Assembly (NCBI GenBank): GCA_048881705.1
Contig: JBHLSH010000050.1
Span: 4,915-28,914 of the forward strand
DNA from: Candidatus Heimdallarchaeota archaeon
GTDB lineage: Archaea > Asgardarchaeota > Heimdallarchaeia > Hodarchaeales > Hodarchaeaceae
Reading direction: 5' to 3'
DNA: 24,000 nucleotides
Position 1 is the first letter of the stretch. Every line of letters begins with the position of its first letter. A model generated the notes under the pieces. The model was given only the letters and a program-made list of their open reading frames with translations. It did no database searches and had not been told where the DNA came from. Both the position numbers and the translations under genes were made by a program. Shown here piece by piece: positions 5,185 through 24,000 of the stretch.

Positions 5185-5931
5185 CTACCCTTCTTCGGTT
5201 ATCGGCCTAAGGGCGAATTTCGCCAACTCTACTGCTGCTAAAGTCGAATTAGAGTTTAGTATTAGCTCGCCCAATATTTTAACAGCTTCTTGATTCTTAT
5301 TTTCCATATTCAAAATAAGAGCTTTGTTAATTAAAAGAATACCTTTTGTTTCAGGATCTGGATTATTATTTAAGCCATTTTCTATTGCTTTTTTCCGTTC
5401 CGACACATCTTTAAGCATAGATGATAATTCTTTCCAAGCTGGTGGATAATCTGGCAAATATTTTAATAAGGAGATAACTTTTTCCTTTTTCTGTTCTGGA
5501 TCGTGTATCCATTCGAGTTGTAAATAAGCTAGGTATGTGCCTTGGGGTAATTCTCCCTTTTTTTCCTTTTTCAGAGTAAATAAAGCAACCTTGGAAGTAA
5601 AGAAACCTTTTGGAGCTAGATCGTCAACCTTTTCATAGGTCAATTATGCCTGGTTAAAGTCTTCATATAACAGGTAGGTAAACGCTAGGTCATATAATGG
5701 ATATGGCCATTTGGGAGCCTCACGATGTGCTTCTTCCAGTAATTCTATTGCTTTACTATAGTTTCCGGATTGTCCATACACCCTAGCCTGTTGGTGTAAC
5801 CCTTTTGCTCTTTGAGAAACGTTTTCTATTCCAATAATTTCATAATCTACTCTTCCTGTGATATTCCGCAAATCTTCTCTCTTTATTGTATTCCCTTGAT
5901 CATCTTTGAATATTATTTTAGTATTTTTCAT
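5185..5931 (-). pseudogene. TPR-repeat protein in one continuous frame, interrupted by a single in-frame TAA at 5644-5646 (pseudogene, readthrough or sequencing error)
   Basis: The ORFs 5644-5931 and 5185-5643 share one frame and are separated only by the TAA. A 34-residue TPR motif (A8, Y11, A20, stop at position 21, Y24, V27, P32) spans the stop. A strong SD (GAGGTGA) precedes the ATG at 5931, and none precedes the downstream TTG. Confidence 0.55.
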
Positions 5932-6207
5932 TCCTTCACCTCTAGATCCATAAGATAAATGCTAGAAAAACTATATTTCAGGATTATCTTTCCAAATACC
6001 AACAAATTTCATTATCAGTTAGAATAGCCATTTGTAATTTTTTCGTAATATGACGTCAAAGATAGGTTTGGCGACATCCCCGTAAATCAAAGATGTGTGT
6101 TCAACAAATCAACCAAATTTCTAAATGCTCTTTTCAATTGTATAATGGTTTTTTAATTCGTTAGATGTTGGTTAAGAATACAAAGTATTTACCAAAGTTC
6201 AACCACC

Positions 6208-7200
6208 TTAATAATATATTAATACTGATGATTTACTCTCTAGTTCCAAAAGTGTTTCCATATCAATTGGATTCCATCGTAGGTCGAGCTTTTTAAGACT
6301 ATTAGTATCTTGTAATGCTTTTGGTACAGACCTTAGTCTATTTGCACGAAGATCCAATACCTGCAGAGATAACATTGATCTCATAGGAAATTCCAAGTTC
6401 TCCAATCTATTATTTCTAAAACTACATTCTACTAGATTAGTTAGATCGCCAAATCTAGCAGGAACTGCCATTATTAGGTTATTTTTGAAATCTGCTTTAA
6501 CTAAGGATTTTAAATCTCCAAATGTCTCTGGTAGGGAGCTTAGATTGTTGCTCATAACGTATATCTCTTGAAGGTTCTCAAGTTCTCCGATGTTATCTTG
6601 TAGTTTGACGAGTTTATTATCATGTAATCTGAATTCTATTAAGTTTTGGAGTTTACTAAAGTATTCTGGTAGCTCTTCAAATTGATTTTCACTAATATTC
6701 AAGTAGATAAGATTATGTAAACCCTTTATTGATTCGTGTAAGTGTTTTAACTTATTATTATGTAAATATAAGAACTTTAGCGATTTTAATTGTCCTATAG
6801 AGTTTGGTATGTTCTCAAGTTGATTATTGGCAGCGTCTAGTACTTCCAGATTTTGTAAGCTTCCTATTGAAATTGGTAAAGTTATCAACTTGTTATCGTG
6901 AATAAAGAGTTGTTTAAGATTTCCTAAAGACCCTATACTTTCAGGAAGGGATCTTAAACCGCAAAATCTAAGTGAGAGCCCCACTACTGTTCCATTAACA
7001 ATTTTCACACATACTTTTGCATCATAGATGTGTTGGTTGTGCTCTAATGTCTTGATATTTTCTCCTTCATTTAACTTCCCAGTCTCATACAACAACCTGG
7101 TGATTTCACTTAAAGCGTGCTCTTCATTCTGCGAGATCATAATGATCAATCCATCTGTTTTTCGTGAAATCTTATCTAAGTTAATTACATTTTTAGTCAT
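6208..7200 (-). CDS. leucine-rich repeat (LRR) protein, 11 x 23-residue repeats
   Basis: 330-aa ORF. Eleven consecutive 23-aa units fit LxxLxLxxNxLxxLPxxIGxLxx. About 70 aa at the N-terminus are non-repeat. No obvious signal peptide or TM segment. Confidence 0.9.
   Translation of the reverse strand: MTKNVINLDKISRKTDGLIIMISQNEEHALSEITRLLYETGKLNEGENIKTLEHNQHIYDAKVCVKIVNGTVVGLSLRFCGLRSLPESIGSLGNLKQLFIHDNKLITLPISIGSLQNLEVLDAANNQLENIPNSIGQLKSLKFLYLHNNKLKHLHESIKGLHNLIYLNISENQFEELPEYFSKLQNLIEFRLHDNKLVKLQDNIGELENLQEIYVMSNNLSSLPETFGDLKSLVKADFKNNLIMAVPARFGDLTNLVECSFRNNRLENLEFPMRSMLSLQVLDLRANRLRSVPKALQDTNSLKKLDLRWNPIDMETLLELESKSSVLIYY
6229..6987 (-). repeat. 69-bp periodic coding repeat array (11 LRR units) inside the LRR gene
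   Basis: The protein repeats are exactly 23 aa long, giving a 69-nt DNA period. The units have diverged at nucleotide level. Confidence 0.6.
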
Positions 7201-10905: not shown

Positions 10906-11598
10906 CTAATAAATTTTCGGAATGAGGCGGTATTTAACCTGTTCCATATATTCCTTGTATCCTGCCAAGTGATTCATCAGCATATCTTCCTCAATTCGTA
11001 TCCTGAAAAGTAATAAGATTGGAAATAACAAAGAAACCAGGAAAGCGATAAGCGATCCTAAAGCTAAAGGTATACAAACTATCATAACTGCGGCAACCGC
11101 ATACATCGGATGTCTAACATATTGATATGGGCCAGAAGTGATCAGTTCATGGTCCTTATGAATAACTAGACCTTTTGAGGCGTACCTGTTAACTTTGTTA
11201 ACATAGGTGATTCCAATGAACCCCGTAATAAATCCGATAAATCCAAGAAGCTCGAGATACCATGGGAGAGGAGAGATCTTGGATGCATGATCAATTCCAG
11301 GAAAAATTACAATAAAACCAAATACGACCAAACCAAGGATCATGAAGGTTCTATCAGGGAAAGAGTGAGTTTCTGGGTTATCTGTAAAATATTTTCCTCT
11401 TTTAAATAATATGTCTGGATCCTTAATTAAAGAATAGAGAAAATACAGGAATGCATAACCTAAAAAGACAAAGATAAATAACCAACCTTCTAACCAAGCA
11501 AAATCATTGGCTGGAATGAGAACAAGCGCACTAAAAACCACAGAAACGATTGGAAGGTAAAAGATCATTAGGAGTAATATCTTAACGCGATCGTCCAT
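10906..11598 (-). CDS. isoprenylcysteine carboxyl methyltransferase (ICMT) / phospholipid methyltransferase family membrane protein
   Basis: 230-aa polytopic ORF. The C-terminal SAM-binding signature LITSGPYQYVRHPMY is followed by a TM segment. An SD (AGGTG) lies 6 nt upstream of the ATG. Confidence 0.8.
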   Translation of the reverse strand: MDDRVKILLLMIFYLPIVSVVFSALVLIPANDFAWLEGWLFIFVFLGYAFLYFLYSLIKDPDILFKRGKYFTDNPETHSFPDRTFMILGLVVFGFIVIFPGIDHASKISPLPWYLELLGFIGFITGFIGITYVNKVNRYASKGLVIHKDHELITSGPYQYVRHPMYAVAAVMIVCIPLALGSLIAFLVSLLFPILLLFRIRIEEDMLMNHLAGYKEYMEQVKYRLIPKIY

Positions 11599-18749: not shown

Positions 18750-19412
18750 CTATTGATCCCATACTTCTTTTGGTTCCTTAGGTACAATATTCCAGAGAAT
18801 ACTAGAGATTTTTTCCCTTTCAAAGAAAAGAATTGTACCGATAACTAAAAGCACCAAAACGAAATAAGTAATGTTCCCCGTAAACCAAAGAATGACAAAC
18901 GGAGAAAATAAAGCTACAATCGCATTTGTCGAAAAATTTTCGTACCAGTTTCCGTTTAATAAGTACCTTTTCAGTATTTTCAGCGTGAGCATTAGAACAA
19001 TAAACAAGATTACAAAGCTCTCCAGCGACAGGAACAAAAGAATTCCCCCGAGCGAGGAGCCTCCCTTTCCACCATGCCAATCGTGCTTTTCTAACCAGAT
19101 CCAAAAGGAGTTGACGTGACCGAAAACAATTCCTAAACTGCCAACAATAAGGATTCCATCATAAAATGGGGACCCGAAAAGATCGTGAAATGCAAAACTT
19201 AGGATTGCTAGAGCAATTGTGGCTTTTAATATATCAGACATTCCAACGATTACCATTGCAGGCCACCCAAAAGTCCGGCCCGCATTTGATGCACCTAATT
19301 GCCCTGTGCCCTCTTGTGTCAGATCAATTCCATTCAGTCTTCCCCAATAATATGATATGAATATCGACCCTGTTAAGTAGCCGAAAGTCCCAGCGATTAA
19401 GATTTCAAACAT
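18750..19412 (-). CDS. plsY: PlsY-family acyl-phosphate:glycerol-3-phosphate acyltransferase (divergent)
   Basis: Three PlsY motifs are recognisable: GSIFISYYWGRLNGIDLTQEGTGQLGASNAGRTFG, DILKATIA and GHVNSF...HGGKGGSSLGG. The preferred start is the ATG at 19412 (MFEILIAG), which overlaps the degV stop by 8 nt (ATGTTTGA). The ORF track extends to 19463. Confidence 0.75.
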   Translation of the reverse strand: MFEILIAGTFGYLTGSIFISYYWGRLNGIDLTQEGTGQLGASNAGRTFGWPAMVIVGMSDILKATIALAILSFAFHDLFGSPFYDGILIVGSLGIVFGHVNSFWIWLEKHDWHGGKGGSSLGGILLFLSLESFVILFIVLMLTLKILKRYLLNGNWYENFSTNAIVALFSPFVILWFTGNITYFVLVLLVIGTILFFEREKISSILWNIVPKEPKEVWDQ

Positions 19413-20304
19413 TAACCTTAATTCCTTTTCTGGGTTTGATTCCCGTTTCAGCGAAATAGGCAACCAATATTAAACCAGGTCCAGTATTGGCCGCCACTGT
19501 TGGATCTGCGTAACCTCTAATAATCGTATAATCTGGCAATTTCTCCATAAGTTTCTCTTCAACTTCAATCAATTCCTTCTCACATCTGAAATGACTAATT
19601 CCCACAATTCGTGGAATCATTTCTCTATCCATATTTTCCGATAGGGAATTAATTACAAGATCCAATGCCGTTTTTCTGTTTCGAGGTCTCTCCACCAGAA
19701 ATACGTCCGAATCTCGCATTAAAAGAACAGGCTTAACTGATAGAGTACTTGCTATCCAACCTGCGACTCTCAGTTTCAATCTGCCACTTCTTTGAAGATA
19801 TTTAAAAGATTCAAGGGTTCCAACTATCTGAATCTTCTTACAGTACTCCCGAACCTGACGAATGATCTCCTGTCTGTCCTCAATTTGACGTGTCTCGATA
19901 GCAGCTGCCGCTATTGCCGTAATACCCAGACCAATTGTTGCAACTCCGCATTCGAAGTGTACAATCCTGGAAGAGTCATCCAAACGCCTGGCAGCCGCTT
20001 TAGCAGCGTTTAACATCCCGGAATGTTTTGTAGGGCAGTGCAAACTTAAAATCATGTCGACATTGTCATATAGGCGTTCGTAAGCCCTATAATAAGCGGC
20101 GGGAGGGGGCGCTCCAGTACGGATGTTTTTCCTTTCATCTTCTAGAAGTTTTTGAAGATCCTCAGCTTGAATATCCACGCCGCTTTGGTACGGAGTTCCA
20201 TCAATGTATACGATGCCTGGTACAAGCACTATTCCATGCTTTTCGGAGACTTTAGGAGGCAAATCAGACATACTATCGCATACAACGCCAATCTTCGTAC
20301 TCAA
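19405..20304 (-). CDS. DegV-family fatty-acid-binding protein (FakB-like)
   Basis: 299-aa ORF. The N-terminus KIGVVCDSMSDLP, the central SGM...AAKAAA, the LESFKYLQRSGRL block and the C-terminal NTGPGLILVAYF all fit the DegV pattern. The TTG start overlaps the upstream stop (TTGA). Confidence 0.85.
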   Translation of the reverse strand: MSTKIGVVCDSMSDLPPKVSEKHGIVLVPGIVYIDGTPYQSGVDIQAEDLQKLLEDERKNIRTGAPPPAAYYRAYERLYDNVDMILSLHCPTKHSGMLNAAKAAARRLDDSSRIVHFECGVATIGLGITAIAAAAIETRQIEDRQEIIRQVREYCKKIQIVGTLESFKYLQRSGRLKLRVAGWIASTLSVKPVLLMRDSDVFLVERPRNRKTALDLVINSLSENMDREMIPRIVGISHFRCEKELIEVEEKLMEKLPDYTIIRGYADPTVAANTGPGLILVAYFAETGIKPRKGIKVNV

Positions 20305-21326
20305 TCCCCCGTTTCTTTGGATCTGATGCGCTTTGATAGCAGGTAATTCTGTTCATTTAGGGATTTAATGGAATCGACTTCAACTTGGCTCACATAGTCT
20401 CTCACATTGGAAATGACGAGATCGGGATCTTTACAATGGATATGTACTTTGATCTTGGAGATCGATTCTTTAGTCAAGACCAGAACACATGTACATTCCT
20501 TTTTCAGTTTGGCTTTTAGGAATTCTATGGATTTCTTTAAACCAGAGATTCTAAAGATTACTTCGAATTCTTCTTCGGTCATTGAGAAATCAATTCTTGG
20601 TTTTAAAAAGGGAGCAAGATCGTCGTCGATTACATGTAATGGCAGAACGTCCGATGGAAATCTATCCACCATTCCCTCAATGAATCCCTCAAAAATTATC
20701 ATTAAGCCCATAGCTCCCGCATCTATGACTCCTGCAAGATTTGCCTGGGGCAAGATTCTGTGAGTGTCCAATAAAGCTGCTTTGGCCTCCTCGAGTGCAA
20801 TATACAGTAATTCAAAAGGCGATTTGACCTTATGTTGCCATTCTTTTGCGGTTTCCGCTATTATTCTGGCTATAGTCAGAATAGTTCCTTCCCTGGGATT
20901 TTCAACTGCTTGGTAGGCACATTTTGCCCCTGAAAATAATCCGCTAGAAAGTACCTCTCTACCAATACTGTCGAATTCATTCCATTCTTGTTCCAAACCC
21001 CGGAAATATTCCGCTAAAATTATACCAGAGTTTCCTATGCTTCCGAAAAATGCTCCTTTTGATGCTGCGCTGATGACCTTGCCAAAATTATTGTGAATCT
21101 CTAAATTATTCAGTTCCTTGATAATAGATTTAAAAGTTTGATGCATATTAAATCCTGTATCCCCATCAGGTACAGGAAACACGTTAACATCATTAAGGAT
21201 ATCAATAAATTTCTCTAGCTTTTGTGATGCCAATTTCAACATGCAATACAAATCTTCGCCAGAGATTACGTCTGGTAATAGGTTTTGAGCGAATTCTTGA
21301 AGAACCATCTCAAGAACCGACTCCAA
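20301..21326 (-). CDS. DAK2-domain protein, FakA-like fatty-acid kinase ATP-binding subunit lacking the usual C-terminal domain
   Basis: 341-aa ORF with a TTG at 21326 and an ATG alternative at 21308. Dak2 motifs: NVFPVPDGDTGFNM, GNSGIILAEYF, EGTILT and VIDAGAMGL. It is followed by a YloV/FakA middle-domain-like KVHIHCKDPDLV...SLNEQ. Confidence 0.8.
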   Translation of the reverse strand: MESVLEMVLQEFAQNLLPDVISGEDLYCMLKLASQKLEKFIDILNDVNVFPVPDGDTGFNMHQTFKSIIKELNNLEIHNNFGKVISAASKGAFFGSIGNSGIILAEYFRGLEQEWNEFDSIGREVLSSGLFSGAKCAYQAVENPREGTILTIARIIAETAKEWQHKVKSPFELLYIALEEAKAALLDTHRILPQANLAGVIDAGAMGLMIIFEGFIEGMVDRFPSDVLPLHVIDDDLAPFLKPRIDFSMTEEEFEVIFRISGLKKSIEFLKAKLKKECTCVLVLTKESISKIKVHIHCKDPDLVISNVRDYVSQVEVDSIKSLNEQNYLLSKRIRSKETGD

Positions 21327-21789: not shown

Positions 21790-22170
21790 ATGGAAAACCT
21801 AAAAGAATATTTTCAAATGTTAGCAAACCTATCGCAAGATGAAGCTAAGTCTCAAATTGCTGAAACCGTCAGTAGTATGGGTACAATGTCAGAGAATGAA
21901 CGAATGGCCCAGACGAAGGGATTAATAAAAACGCTCTCCGAAATGCCGGAAGAGGTGCACACCAAAATACTTAAGGCGCGGTTAGAGGCCTTCGCGGACC
22001 TATCTGAAGATATCTTGTCACAGATGCTCGAGGATGGAGCCAAAGCTTTTACTGAACTTCCCAATGCAGTCCTAGAGCGGGAGAAACGTTTAATGAATAA
22101 AGTTCTCCCGGATCTTTCAGATGCCGCGAAACAGCTTGTTCAGAAATCGTTAGAAATGATGGGAGATTAA
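21790..22170 (+). CDS. hypothetical small all-helical acidic protein
   Basis: 126-aa ORF with an ATG start. Rich in E, K, L and A with heptad-like spacing. No family recognised. Confidence 0.5.
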   Translation: MENLKEYFQMLANLSQDEAKSQIAETVSSMGTMSENERMAQTKGLIKTLSEMPEEVHTKILKARLEAFADLSEDILSQMLEDGAKAFTELPNAVLEREKRLMNKVLPDLSDAAKQLVQKSLEMMGD

Positions 22171-22244
22171 CACACTAGAGACTCCTAGATCCGTCCTAGT
22201 GTTATTAATGGAAAAAATAACTCCCCCTCCTCATTACCTTTTAA

Positions 22245-22541
22245 TTATGCTCGAAGGATTCCGATTCCAAACAGTATAACTGCAAGAAGCTGGAGTCCCT
22301 CGTAAATCTCTTTTATCTTTTCGTAAGCCAAGGCAGTTCCTTCAACAAAATAATCAAGCCCTCCGTAAAGACCTGATAGTGCCAGCGCAAAAAACGCCAT
22401 TGCAAAAAAGAGGGGTAGATTCTTCCGATTTTTCAGGTAGGAACGAGTCGAAATTAAACCTAGAATTAGATAAACGAAGAAATACCCTAGTTCGACACTG
22501 TTTTCCAGCAGTTCCCAAATTACAAGTTCGGCCATGATCAT
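22245..22541 (-). CDS. small membrane protein (3 TM), paralog of the upstream gene
   Basis: The preferred start is the ATG at 22541 (MIMAELV). It overlaps the upstream stop as ATGA and is preceded by the SD GGAGGT. It shares the pattern TM-YxKN-TM-loop-E.YE..Q.LA..F..G with the neighbouring gene. Confidence 0.55.
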   Translation of the reverse strand: MIMAELVIWELLENSVELGYFFVYLILGLISTRSYLKNRKNLPLFFAMAFFALALSGLYGGLDYFVEGTALAYEKIKEIYEGLQLLAVILFGIGILRA

Positions 22542-22855
22542 ACCTCCTGAGGTGCTTTCTTCGATTGACCGTAAATTTCTCGATATCCCCATGCAAAGAA
22601 AACCGCAGCTAGGAACTGAAAGCTCTCAATGATAGTTTCATACATTTCGTGCGCTGGGGGAAGAAACGTCTCGAGCGTCGGTAGCATCGTTCTTACAATC
22701 AAGATGACTGCAATTATTATGAAAGAGATAATAAATCTCTTCAATGGCTGGTAATGTGTCTTGTTGTAGATATTCCAAGTCAATAAAACCAGGCCAATAC
22801 ATCCTACACTAGTTATTATTTGAATAATTGGATGAAAACCCCATGATACTGACAT
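22538..22855 (-). CDS. small membrane protein (3 TM), paralog of the downstream gene
   Basis: The preferred start is the ATG at 22855 (MSVSWGF), with the SD AGGTG 7 nt upstream. The ORF track opens at a GTG at 22864. It lies 50 nt downstream of the 364-aa gene. Confidence 0.55.
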   Translation of the reverse strand: MSVSWGFHPIIQIITSVGCIGLVLLTWNIYNKTHYQPLKRFIISFIIIAVILIVRTMLPTLETFLPPAHEMYETIIESFQFLAAVFFAWGYREIYGQSKKAPQEV

Positions 22856-22905
22856 TATTAGCACCTGTCTATATTCGTTTGTTGAACATTAGTTAGTTTA
22901 GTTGA

Positions 22906-24000
22906 TTAGGCAAAAAGATCTCCAAAATCTGGAGCCTGCAATTTTTCAATTTGTGGAATAAATTTTGGCAGATATCGCTTGCTCAGCTCCAAGATCAAAT
23001 GTGTTTCAGTGTCAGAATACTGGTGAAGGTATTCCTTAACCTTACTCTCATCATTTAGGCTGAATATACTGGACAAACTGTTTACTGCCTCTCTAATTTT
23101 ATCCACGATTAGCTCGATGTTATCAAGCATTTGGGTCTCGCTCTTGGATTTTCTAAGCGTCTTTAGCAAAGATTTGAGGAATTTATCCTTGTTTTCACGA
23201 CTAATCGTTCGTTTATCGATATCTATAACAAGGACTCTATTTTCATCATAAAGATGGACTAGCTCTCTCGATATTCCAATAATCCTGGCGTTTTTTGGAT
23301 CCACATATGTCGTACTATATTCGATGTGATTTTTGGGGGGAAACAGAGTGAAAAGTCTTAATCCACGTACGACGTGGGATACGAGCAGTTCCTGTCCCAT
23401 GACAATGATAGTATCATCAGCAAGCGCTGAAAAAATGGCAGCCTCCAAATTCTTACTAAATGATCCGATAAGAAAGTTGATTGAACCATCCTTAAGGTAA
23501 GGATCCCCCTTCGTACCCCTCGAGATATCATACTCGGGTAAACTGGAATATGATGAGCTAATTGATCCGAAACTGGCAATCTCGGATTCTAAATCCTTTG
23601 TAAAAACTATATCATTGGTTGAAGATTTAAACAGCTGTTTAATAATCTCACGGGAAAGCTCCTCAGCCTGCATTTTCAATAAATTTATTTTTCCGTACAA
23701 TTGTTCTTCTTCTGAACTCTCAACCACATAGTTTAACGAAGCTATTCTTCTCTTGCCCGTGATTTCAGGATTTGTTCCTTCAATGGAAAAAATATATACA
23801 TAAGCAATTTTATCTGTTTCTGGAAGAGGAAGGACCGCATCGAGAGCTGAAAATACTTCCCCACCACTTACATCCAGAGTTATACGACTTTTTAACGCAA
23901 TTTTATTGGCCAAGCTATCATTTGCCTTATTAGTCGAAAAGATTGGCATTGGCCCTTGCTGGATATCAAAAACTGAAAGGAAAACCTCTGGGGATGACAT
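22906..24000 (-). CDS. hypothetical protein; candidate longin(uDENN)-like plus core-DENN-like two-domain protein
   Basis: 364-aa ORF whose ATG lies exactly at the window edge, so the true start could be further upstream. The N-terminal 125 aa show a beta-beta-alpha-beta-beta-beta-alpha pattern (VFLSVFDIQQGPMPIF...). Residues about 175-285 resemble the DENND1B core by eye: AIFSALADDTIIVMGQ, LFTLFPP, ARIIGISRELV, VLVIDIDKRTI. Confidence 0.6.
   Translation of the reverse strand: MSSPEVFLSVFDIQQGPMPIFSTNKANDSLANKIALKSRITLDVSGGEVFSALDAVLPLPETDKIAYVYIFSIEGTNPEITGKRRIASLNYVVESSEEEQLYGKINLLKMQAEELSREIIKQLFKSSTNDIVFTKDLESEIASFGSISSSYSSLPEYDISRGTKGDPYLKDGSINFLIGSFSKNLEAAIFSALADDTIIVMGQELLVSHVVRGLRLFTLFPPKNHIEYSTTYVDPKNARIIGISRELVHLYDENRVLVIDIDKRTISRENKDKFLKSLLKTLRKSKSETQMLDNIELIVDKIREAVNSLSSIFSLNDESKVKEYLHQYSDTETHLILELSKRYLPKFIPQIEKLQAPDFGDLFA

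Follow-up and report, generated by a model that had tools for sequence, protein, structure and literature searches.

A predicted longin-DENN protein of the folliculin/SMCR8/C9orf72 branch encoded next to two small membrane proteins in an Asgard archaeal contig

Three adjacent genes at the end of the window

The DNA examined here, called the window throughout, is a stretch of 24,000 nucleotides (nt) of the 29.5-kb contig JBHLSH010000050.1 (assembly GCA_048881705.1, positions 4,915 to 28,914 of the forward strand). It comes from an Asgard metagenome-assembled genome (MAG) of the Heimdall/Hodarchaeales type and has a GC content of 38.7%; a preliminary description, made from the letters of the window, had already taken the genome for an archaeal one. 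The subject of this report is a gene at the end of the window for a protein of 364 amino acids (aa), which is an Asgard member of the folliculin (FLCN)/SMCR8/C9orf72 branch of the DENN superfamily and not of the classical DENND branch. Two genes for small membrane proteins, named A and B, follow it on the same strand. The genes, the Shine-Dalgarno (SD)-like sites and the tract that follows the last gene are these:

22906..24000, minus strand: longin-DENN gene, an open reading frame (ORF) of 364 aa (NCBI MFW9779542.1, annotated 'hypothetical protein').
22862..22866, minus strand: SD-like sequence AGGTG, 6 nt upstream of the gene A ATG, also present in contig L003.
22538..22855, minus strand: gene A, an ORF for a 105-aa small membrane protein (MFW9779541.1) with the conserved stretch LPPAHEMYETxIExFQFLAA.
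22542..22547, minus strand: SD-like sequence GGAGGT, within the end of gene A and 6 nt upstream of the gene B ATG at 22535.
22245..22535, minus strand: gene B, coding for a 96-aa small membrane protein (MFW9779540.1), DUF5985-like, 2 nt after the gene A TGA.
22212..22220, minus strand: T-rich tract (TTATTTTTT), about 25 nt past the gene B stop codon.

The three ORFs lie where the preliminary description had placed them. The longest one begins with MSSPEVFLSVFDIQQGPMPIFS and its first ATG coincides with the end of the window; the protein is nonetheless complete, because its homologues start at the same position and this ATG is also the one chosen by gene-calling programs. Syntenic, near-identical contigs contain just two more in-frame codons (MEM...) before this ATG. 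For gene A, the start was set at ATG 22855, with GTG 22864 as an alternative, and with this ATG the spacer from the 364-aa gene measures 50 nt (22856-22905), which is the gap that had been claimed. The same description had A and B coupled by an ATGA overlap with a GGAGGT site. The GGAGGT sequence is indeed present, but the likely start of gene B is ATG 22535 (MAELV...; M[AT]ELV...), which lies 2 nt after the TGA of gene A and is conserved in L003 and in the 917-bp contig L011. The overlapping ATG at 22541 is less favoured because the SD sequence directly abuts it. The T-rich tract behind gene B is likely, from its sequence, to be an archaeal terminator at which transcription of the three genes ends; T-runs are also found downstream of gene B in L003 and L011, and none occurs between the longin-DENN gene and gene A. 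The 50-nt spacer before gene A does contain an AT-rich, possibly promoter-like stretch (AATATAG).

Each of the small proteins had been credited with three transmembrane (TM) segments. AlphaFold2 modelled protein A with three helices, at low confidence (predicted local distance difference test, pLDDT, 62.7), whereas a Kyte-Doolittle scan detected just two strongly hydrophobic segments in each of A and B; three helices in both proteins are plausible. Protein B matched Pfam DUF5985 with E 7.7e-6 and 26.6 bits, below the gathering cutoff of 27.3, and NCBI names its 97%-identical orthologue 'DUF5985 family protein'. Protein A gave no match to the DUF5985 model, and the literature searched mentions this family nowhere. 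The two proteins had been presented as paralogues sharing the motif E.YE..Q.LA..F..G. Alignment of this motif needs a shift of four residues, and BLASTP of A against B revealed no similarity (E 24). A profile-profile comparison with hhalign aligned 66 columns (E 1.1e-4, probability 56%), including a gapless match AxExxxxIxExxQxLAxxxFxxG that lies before and in the last helix. Paralogy of A and B is plausible on these alignments, and weakly supported. An identity of A and B as SemiSWEET or PQ-loop proteins was considered and discarded: there was no such match in Pfam, and a Foldseek search with the model of protein A had no match better than E 0.5, with SemiSWEET and PQ-loop entries missing from its results, which at the pLDDT of that model is a weak negative.

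Longin and DENN domains of the 364-aa protein

Searches with the 364-aa sequence alone gave little. Pfam and NCBIfam scans produced nothing significant, phmmer against the PDB found nothing, the Pfam models uDENN, DENN and dDENN were not matched at E values up to 10, and a word-indexed single-sequence protein search retrieved only the protein itself. A precomputed match to Pfam PF27109 (SMCR8_C) is recorded for the protein and also for its relatives. An exhaustive HMMER search with 60 cluster representatives as its outcome defined a family that forms about 60 clusters at 50% identity; its proteins are mostly of about 365 aa, and its named members are all hypothetical proteins from Candidatus Heimdallarchaeaceae/Heimdallarchaeota, plus one labelled Thorarchaeota. 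Domain fusions that would name a client GTPase were sought in the longer members and none was found.

The family profiles revealed what the single sequence did not. A profile of 25 members matched, in the PDB, the Lokiarchaeal longin 8yqg (E 4.9e-4) and the DENN core of SMCR8 (E 0.013). Individual members matched the Pfam families C9orf72-like (6.8e-5), Folliculin (1.3e-4) and Folliculin_C (1.8e-3), one of them, P0040, exceeding the curated Folliculin cutoff with 33.6 against 23.3 bits. With hhalign, the profile of 65 family sequences aligned to the SMCR8 DENN core (E 5.5e-5), the SMCR8 longin domain (E 2.5e-3) and FLCN 364-443, which is the DENN core (E 7.6e-3); with the longin domain of C9orf72 no sequence-level alignment was obtained. 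The numbering of the human C9orf72, FLCN and SMCR8 sequences entered into hhalign agrees with the published residues W33/D34/G38/P39 of C9orf72, R164 of FLCN and G68/P69/R147 of SMCR8, and the SMCR8 sequence also agrees with the profile alignment to the PDB. Matches to SMCR8 and FLCN are of the kind that the preliminary description had anticipated from a profile search. Its alignment by eye of four blocks with the DENN core of DENND1B stood for the most part: blocks 1, 3 and 4 are in the claimed register and block 2 partly so. The family profile scored 22.0 (E 0.006) against this DENND1B stretch, an approximate query taken in part from the earlier note, while the best of 30 shuffled sequences scored 15.3.

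An AlphaFold2 model built with the family alignment reached a pLDDT of 84.7 and divides the protein into the following predicted parts:

23626..24000, minus strand: longin domain, residues 1-125, with the order beta-beta-alpha-beta-beta-beta-alpha (DSSP of the model, Foldseek, profile match to 8yqg).
23494..23556, minus strand: predicted disordered inter-domain linker, residues 149-169 (pLDDT below 50).
23215..23481, minus strand: alpha/beta DENN core, residues 174-262 (AlphaFold2 strands 198-201, 225-229, 240-243 and 257-260).
22909..23184, minus strand: all-helical C-terminal tail, dDENN-like, residues 273-364 (helices 273-363, pLDDT above 90).

The longin elements of the model are strands 5-12 and 16-22, helix 25-44, strands 52-59, 64-73 and 85-94 and helix 95-125, and thus AlphaFold2 reproduced the secondary-structure order that had been read from the sequence as that of a longin/uDENN fold. 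The single difference between the window protein and its copy in contig L001, threonine in place of alanine at residue 164 (23509-23511), falls in the predicted linker. The tail had been proposed to correspond to dDENN; its helices are confidently predicted, but the sequence link is weak, with hhalign aligning it to C9orf72 397-464 at E 0.074.

In a Foldseek search of the PDB, the best 24 matches were exclusively longin or DENN proteins. C9orf72 (7mge_C) ranked first with E 2e-9, followed by FLCN (2e-8) and DENND1B (4e-8), and FNIP2, DENND10, SMCR8, the Asgard longin 8yqg, the FLCN DENN domain 3v42 and Lst4 were also among these 24. The FLCN, SMCR8 and DENND1 entries matched were 6nzd_H, 8dhb_J, 3v42 and 6lt0_B together with 3tw8_C and 6ekk, so that both structures named beforehand for this comparison, 3TW8 and 3V42, were recovered. 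Domain by domain, the TM-scores (TMt) were 0.67 to the longin 8yqg, 0.65 to the Lst4 longin 4zy8 and 0.63 to the FLCN DENN domain 3v42. Over the full length they reached just 0.3-0.4, which we attribute to the flexible, disordered linker that joins the two domains.

These low full-length scores, together with the Pfam and NCBIfam scans in which the window protein had no significant match, could speak for an unrelated prokaryotic family whose likeness to longin and DENN folds is due to convergence or to the structure prediction itself. We consider this explanation very improbable. A low full-length score is expected from the linker, and against FLCN DENN and longin structures taken singly the scores are 0.63-0.67. 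The sequence evidence is independent of the model (the SMCR8_C match, the profile match to the SMCR8 DENN core and a member above the Folliculin cutoff), and no competing family appeared in any search. The modelled architecture is that of a longin domain, a DENN core and a helical tail.

Two loops of the predicted longin domain bear on what such a protein might do:

23944..23970, minus strand: GP motif F11-D12-x3-G16-P17-x-P19 in the beta1-beta2 loop (family conservation, hhalign).
23746..23781, minus strand: beta4-beta5 loop, residues 74-85 (EGTNPEITGKRR), the arginine-finger site in FLCN, SMCR8 and NPRL2.

A GP motif in the beta1-beta2 loop has been described for FLCN, NPRL2, SMCR8 and C9orf72, where in C9orf72 it is preceded by W33-D34, and it is absent from FNIP2, NPRL3, the DENND proteins and other longins (PMC12290439). 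The catalytic arginine finger of FLCN (R164), SMCR8 (R147) and NPRL2 (R78) lies in the beta4-beta5 loop, and such an arginine is reported for 15 Asgard longins (PMC12290439). Among 65 members of the family studied here, F11 is conserved in 82%, D12 in 88% and G16 in 88%, and P17 is kept in 29 of the 36 members of the subgroup to which the window protein belongs. hhalign placed G16-P17 on G68-P69 of SMCR8, and the D-x3-G-P spacing is identical to that of C9orf72 (F11-D12...G16-P17 against W33-D34...G38-P39), with phenylalanine for tryptophan.

In the second loop, R147 of SMCR8 was aligned opposite T81 of the window protein. K83, R84 and R85 lie near T81; R84 and R85, which are three to four residues off, might serve as substitutes for the arginine finger. 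The 36 members outside the P0052-like group share no conserved arginine in this loop, which varies among them in length and sequence. The family thus falls into two types, one with FDxxxGP and a variable beta4-beta5 loop, which includes the window protein, and the P0052-like one. The latter (29 sequences, from Heimdallarchaeaceae) carries FDxxxG[T/V/S] and an invariant arginine at the column aligned to SMCR8 R147. From their sequences, these two subfamilies are reminiscent of pairs of non-catalytic and catalytic paralogues such as FNIP and FLCN, and we infer that the window protein is closer to a partner of the type without the arginine, like C9orf72, than to a catalytic subunit.

Function, conservation of the array and surrounding genes

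By analogy with the characterised relatives, FLCN-FNIP, C9orf72-SMCR8 and DENND1, the locus can be given a likely function. In the reading that we favour, with a probability of about one half, the 364-aa protein would be an Asgard platform of the FLCN/SMCR8/C9orf72 branch that controls a GTPase and is co-transcribed with the docking proteins A and B. The protein would dimerise with itself or with a paralogue from another locus, since every characterised relative behaves as a dimeric GTPase platform. The client bound by this platform would be a small GTPase similar to Arf, Rag or Rab, likewise from another locus, whose nucleotide state it would set. Since the arginine-finger position is not conserved in the subfamily, it would more likely act as a non-catalytic C9orf72/FNIP-like partner, a guanine nucleotide exchange factor (GEF) or a scaffold than as an arginine-donating subunit of a GTPase-activating protein (GAP). 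The three genes would be read as a single transcript, because the spacers are short (50 nt and 2 nt), SD-like sites precede both A and B and a T-run occurs only after B. A and B, possibly distant paralogues in a heterodimer, would supply the longin-DENN protein with a docking site at the membrane or with a membrane-borne signal. While the fold, the motifs, the gene order and the limited conservation of that order come from the analysis itself, this reading infers that the protein dimerises, that it has a GTPase client and regulates it in a given direction, and that it is physically linked to A and B.

A bolder version strikes us as improbable: A and B would pair into a membrane unit of six helices, perhaps a sensor or a small transporter, and this heterodimer would dock the longin-DENN protein directly. 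If true, this unit would be a prokaryotic counterpart of the recruitment of C9orf72-SMCR8 or FLCN-FNIP by lysosomal membrane proteins, and the first membrane receptor of an Asgard GTPase-regulator homologue that can be read from an operon.

The order longin-DENN, A, B recurs in L003/L004 (Hodarchaeales) with different flanking genes. It is probably also kept in L011, where A and B overlap by 4 nt and are preceded by the C-terminal fragment of an ORF (...SPQIQELI*) that resembles the tail of the longin-DENN protein. Scanning genome contigs for A and B recovered only the sister MAG already known, and the scans of metagenome contigs gave nothing. The neighbourhoods of five other family members were as follows:

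P0002: 46% identity, the closest homologue; contig L002; array absent in the 416 bp available downstream.
P0004: 32% identity; contig L005; array absent.
P0005: 31% identity; contig L012; array absent.
P0006: 31% identity; contigs L006/L007; array absent.
P0008: 30% identity; contigs L013/L014; array absent.

Several of these observations weigh against a GTPase platform tied to A and B. The array is missing beside the five members listed and beside a P0052-like member (L008), so that the conservation of the three-gene neighbourhood in homologues, which had been put forward as a check, holds in L003/L004 and probably L011 and fails in the others. Where the array is kept, its proteins have diverged at different rates: between the window and L003, A and B are far better conserved (68% and 73% identity; L003 3636-4253) than the longin-DENN protein (37%), and therefore the three do not have the look of tightly co-evolving partners. 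Among the ORFs of at least 90 aa in the 24-kb window there is no GTPase, roadblock or second longin gene, in agreement with the earlier statement that no small GTPase gene lies inside it. That statement had been paired with the advice to look for Ras-superfamily GTPase or roadblock/longin genes beyond position 24000; the 9.4 kb upstream of the longin-DENN gene in the syntenic contig L009 contain no GTPase, roadblock or second longin gene. Nor does any such gene adjoin the five other members, and the P0052-like one has no GTPase neighbour either. Finally, another study, which found candidates resembling C9orf72-SMCR8 by Foldseek, judged two Asgard candidates of this kind to be without Arf-interacting regions (PMC11914678).

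Unrelated membrane proteins are encoded as same-strand neighbours of two other members, which could be chance: a 104-aa protein with three TM segments 20 bp upstream of the member in L005 (5667-5981, plus strand) and a 291-aa multi-TM protein 208 bp downstream of the member in L006 (7315-8190, plus strand).

With these points in hand, the adjacency of A and B may be questioned while the fold is retained: the cytoplasm would be where the longin-DENN protein meets its GTPase, the product of a distant gene, while A and B, a DUF5985-type pair unrelated to it, would owe their place to mere local gene order. We hold this to be unlikely on balance, yet as an alternative it remains strong, given the narrow distribution of the array and the very different rates at which its three proteins evolve. 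Only one very narrow clade has the array, the A family comprises three clusters in 5.8 billion sequences, and a relative of B was found, with the patterns used, in one of 185,579 species genomes. The possible promoter-like AATATAG before gene A would also suit independent expression of the pair. Mere gene order accounts less well for the arrangement itself, in which the genes share one strand with short spacers and SD-like sites, no T-run precedes A, and the order is kept in L003 despite different flanks and probably in L011.

A role without any GTPase has precedents, since longin domains occur in SNAREs and adaptor complexes and DENND10 is a structural subunit of Commander. By this account the longin-DENN protein would be an adaptor or chaperone for A and B or for other cargo, which we regard as improbable. 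The lack of a GTPase gene near any family member examined, the non-conserved arginine finger and the presence of DENND10 among the top structural matches all agree with it, as does the judgement on the Arf-binding regions of the Asgard candidates (PMC11914678). Opposed to it is the GP motif with a conserved aspartate four residues upstream, a feature reported for the GTPase-facing pocket of longins in GAP complexes alone and missing from other longins (PMC12290439). Moreover, the closest structural relatives except DENND10 all act on GTPases.

Other genes surround the array. The labels under which near-identical sequences have been deposited disagree (Candidatus Heimdallarchaeota, Candidatus Hodarchaeales and Candidatus Thorarchaeota, the last for isolate TM1M.79, GCA_048882505.1), and the Thorarchaeota label looks doubtful. 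In L009, the region beyond position 24000 holds an intergenic stretch of 748 bp and genes for two proteins of about 891 aa, for a 192-aa protein of no known family and for MerB. The two large proteins are paralogues (L009 2077-4755 and 5987-8662, both minus strand) that combine MalT-like tetratricopeptide repeats (TPR; TPR_MalT) with a C-terminal CN_hydrolase domain and are divergently oriented upstream of the longin-DENN gene; a truncated copy lies in L001 (3-1220, minus strand). On the other side, convergent to the array, an ORF at 21790-22170 (plus strand) encodes a 126-aa acidic, apparently all-helical protein without family, which occupies the same position in L009, L010 and partly L001 and does not occur in L003.

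The window also codes for ordinary metabolic and membrane proteins as well as a TrmB regulator, an archaeal Ssb-like protein with an oligonucleotide-binding (OB) fold, a leucine-rich repeat (LRR) protein and a FakA-DegV-PlsY cluster; scans for tRNA genes and Rfam families were empty. The genes for a FakA-like protein (Dak2), DegV and the glycerol-3-phosphate (G3P) acyltransferase PlsY stand in a row at 18750-21326 (minus strand), in the same order as in L009 (12105-14663). They represent, in an Asgard MAG, the pathway of bacterial type that leads from fatty acid via acyl-phosphate to acyl-G3P, and may bear on the lipid divide between archaea and bacteria. The LRR protein, of 330 aa, consists of eukaryote-like LRR_8 repeats without a Roc/GTPase domain and is encoded beside small TPR/helical-repeat proteins (5185-7200, minus strand). 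Eukaryotic ICMT methylates the prenylated CAAX cysteines of small GTPases; a membrane methyltransferase of the ICMT/PEMT family is encoded at 10906-11598 (minus strand), from a family widespread in prokaryotes, and its presence is perhaps meaningless.

Comparison with known longin-DENN systems

The complexes FLCN-FNIP and C9orf72-SMCR8 are central switches of lysosomal and nutrient signalling in eukaryotes, and Asgard homologues of their longin-DENN proteins bear on a pre-eukaryotic origin of the regulation of membrane trafficking. The preprint by Liu et al. on such homologues reportedly appeared in Nature in 2021. It described DENN-domain proteins in Asgard archaea, FLCN-like proteins with longin and DENN domains in Heimdall lineages and the expansion of families of paralogues (bioRxiv 10.1101/2020.10.19.343400). 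Asgard longins of the FLCN/SMCR8 type with a GP motif, named 'Folliculin/SMCR8 longin domain-containing', have been reported as well (PMC12290439). The general view in the preliminary description that DENN and folliculin modules are eukaryotic is outdated in the light of these two reports. The window protein shares with the published Asgard FLCN-like proteins the Heimdall lineage, the two-domain organisation of FLCN, the GP motif and membership of an expanded paralogous family. It departs from the Asgard longins of PMC12290439, for which an arginine finger is reported, in belonging to a subfamily that has not conserved one. The operon published by Liu et al. joins a LAMTOR1-like roadblock protein, a Rab-like GTPase and a DENN protein, while the window gene has genes for two small membrane proteins as its neighbours instead. 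The 364-aa protein is an unannotated addition to the Asgard longin-DENN proteins already published, and because these are published the locus leaves the overall picture unchanged.

Among the human proteins, C9orf72 is the partner of SMCR8 in the CSW complex, an Arf/Rab GAP. The window protein resembles it as the best structural match, in joining longin and DENN domains in one chain of similar size, in the aromatic-Asp-x3-Gly-Pro spacing and in having no arginine finger of its own; it differs by an identity of about 14%, by the phenylalanine in place of tryptophan, and in that no WDR41 or SMCR8 partner was identified for it. With FLCN and SMCR8 it shares a longin domain with the GP motif and a DENN core whose similarity is detectable in sequence, whereas Thr81 stands at the site of SMCR8 R147, in a loop that is not conserved in close homologues. 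At 364 aa it is also shorter, without the N-terminal Cys-rich insert of FLCN and the long insertions of SMCR8. DENND1A and DENND1B are alike in the order of longin/uDENN, DENN core and a helical tail, which in the window protein is dDENN-like, and were matched by structure; the window protein differs from them by the missing Pfam uDENN, DENN and dDENN matches, and DENND proteins are without the GP motif.

As for membrane placement, PQLC2-WDR41 recruits C9orf72-SMCR8 to lysosomes and Ragulator/SLC38A9 recruits FLCN-FNIP. The likeness of A and B to these systems is one of concept only, in that an integral membrane protein brings in a longin-DENN regulator, and neither the Pfam scans of A and B nor the Foldseek search with the low-confidence model of A gave a PQ-loop or SemiSWEET match. 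What the locus adds to the known systems is modest and twofold: a compact family of 364-aa proteins with one type that carries the GP motif without a conserved arginine and another that bears the arginine, and one narrow Hodarchaeales-like lineage in which the gene is linked to two membrane proteins. This link appears to be undescribed so far, and it offers a testable hypothesis for how a longin-DENN protein of the FLCN/SMCR8/C9orf72 branch might be placed at a membrane in an archaeon.

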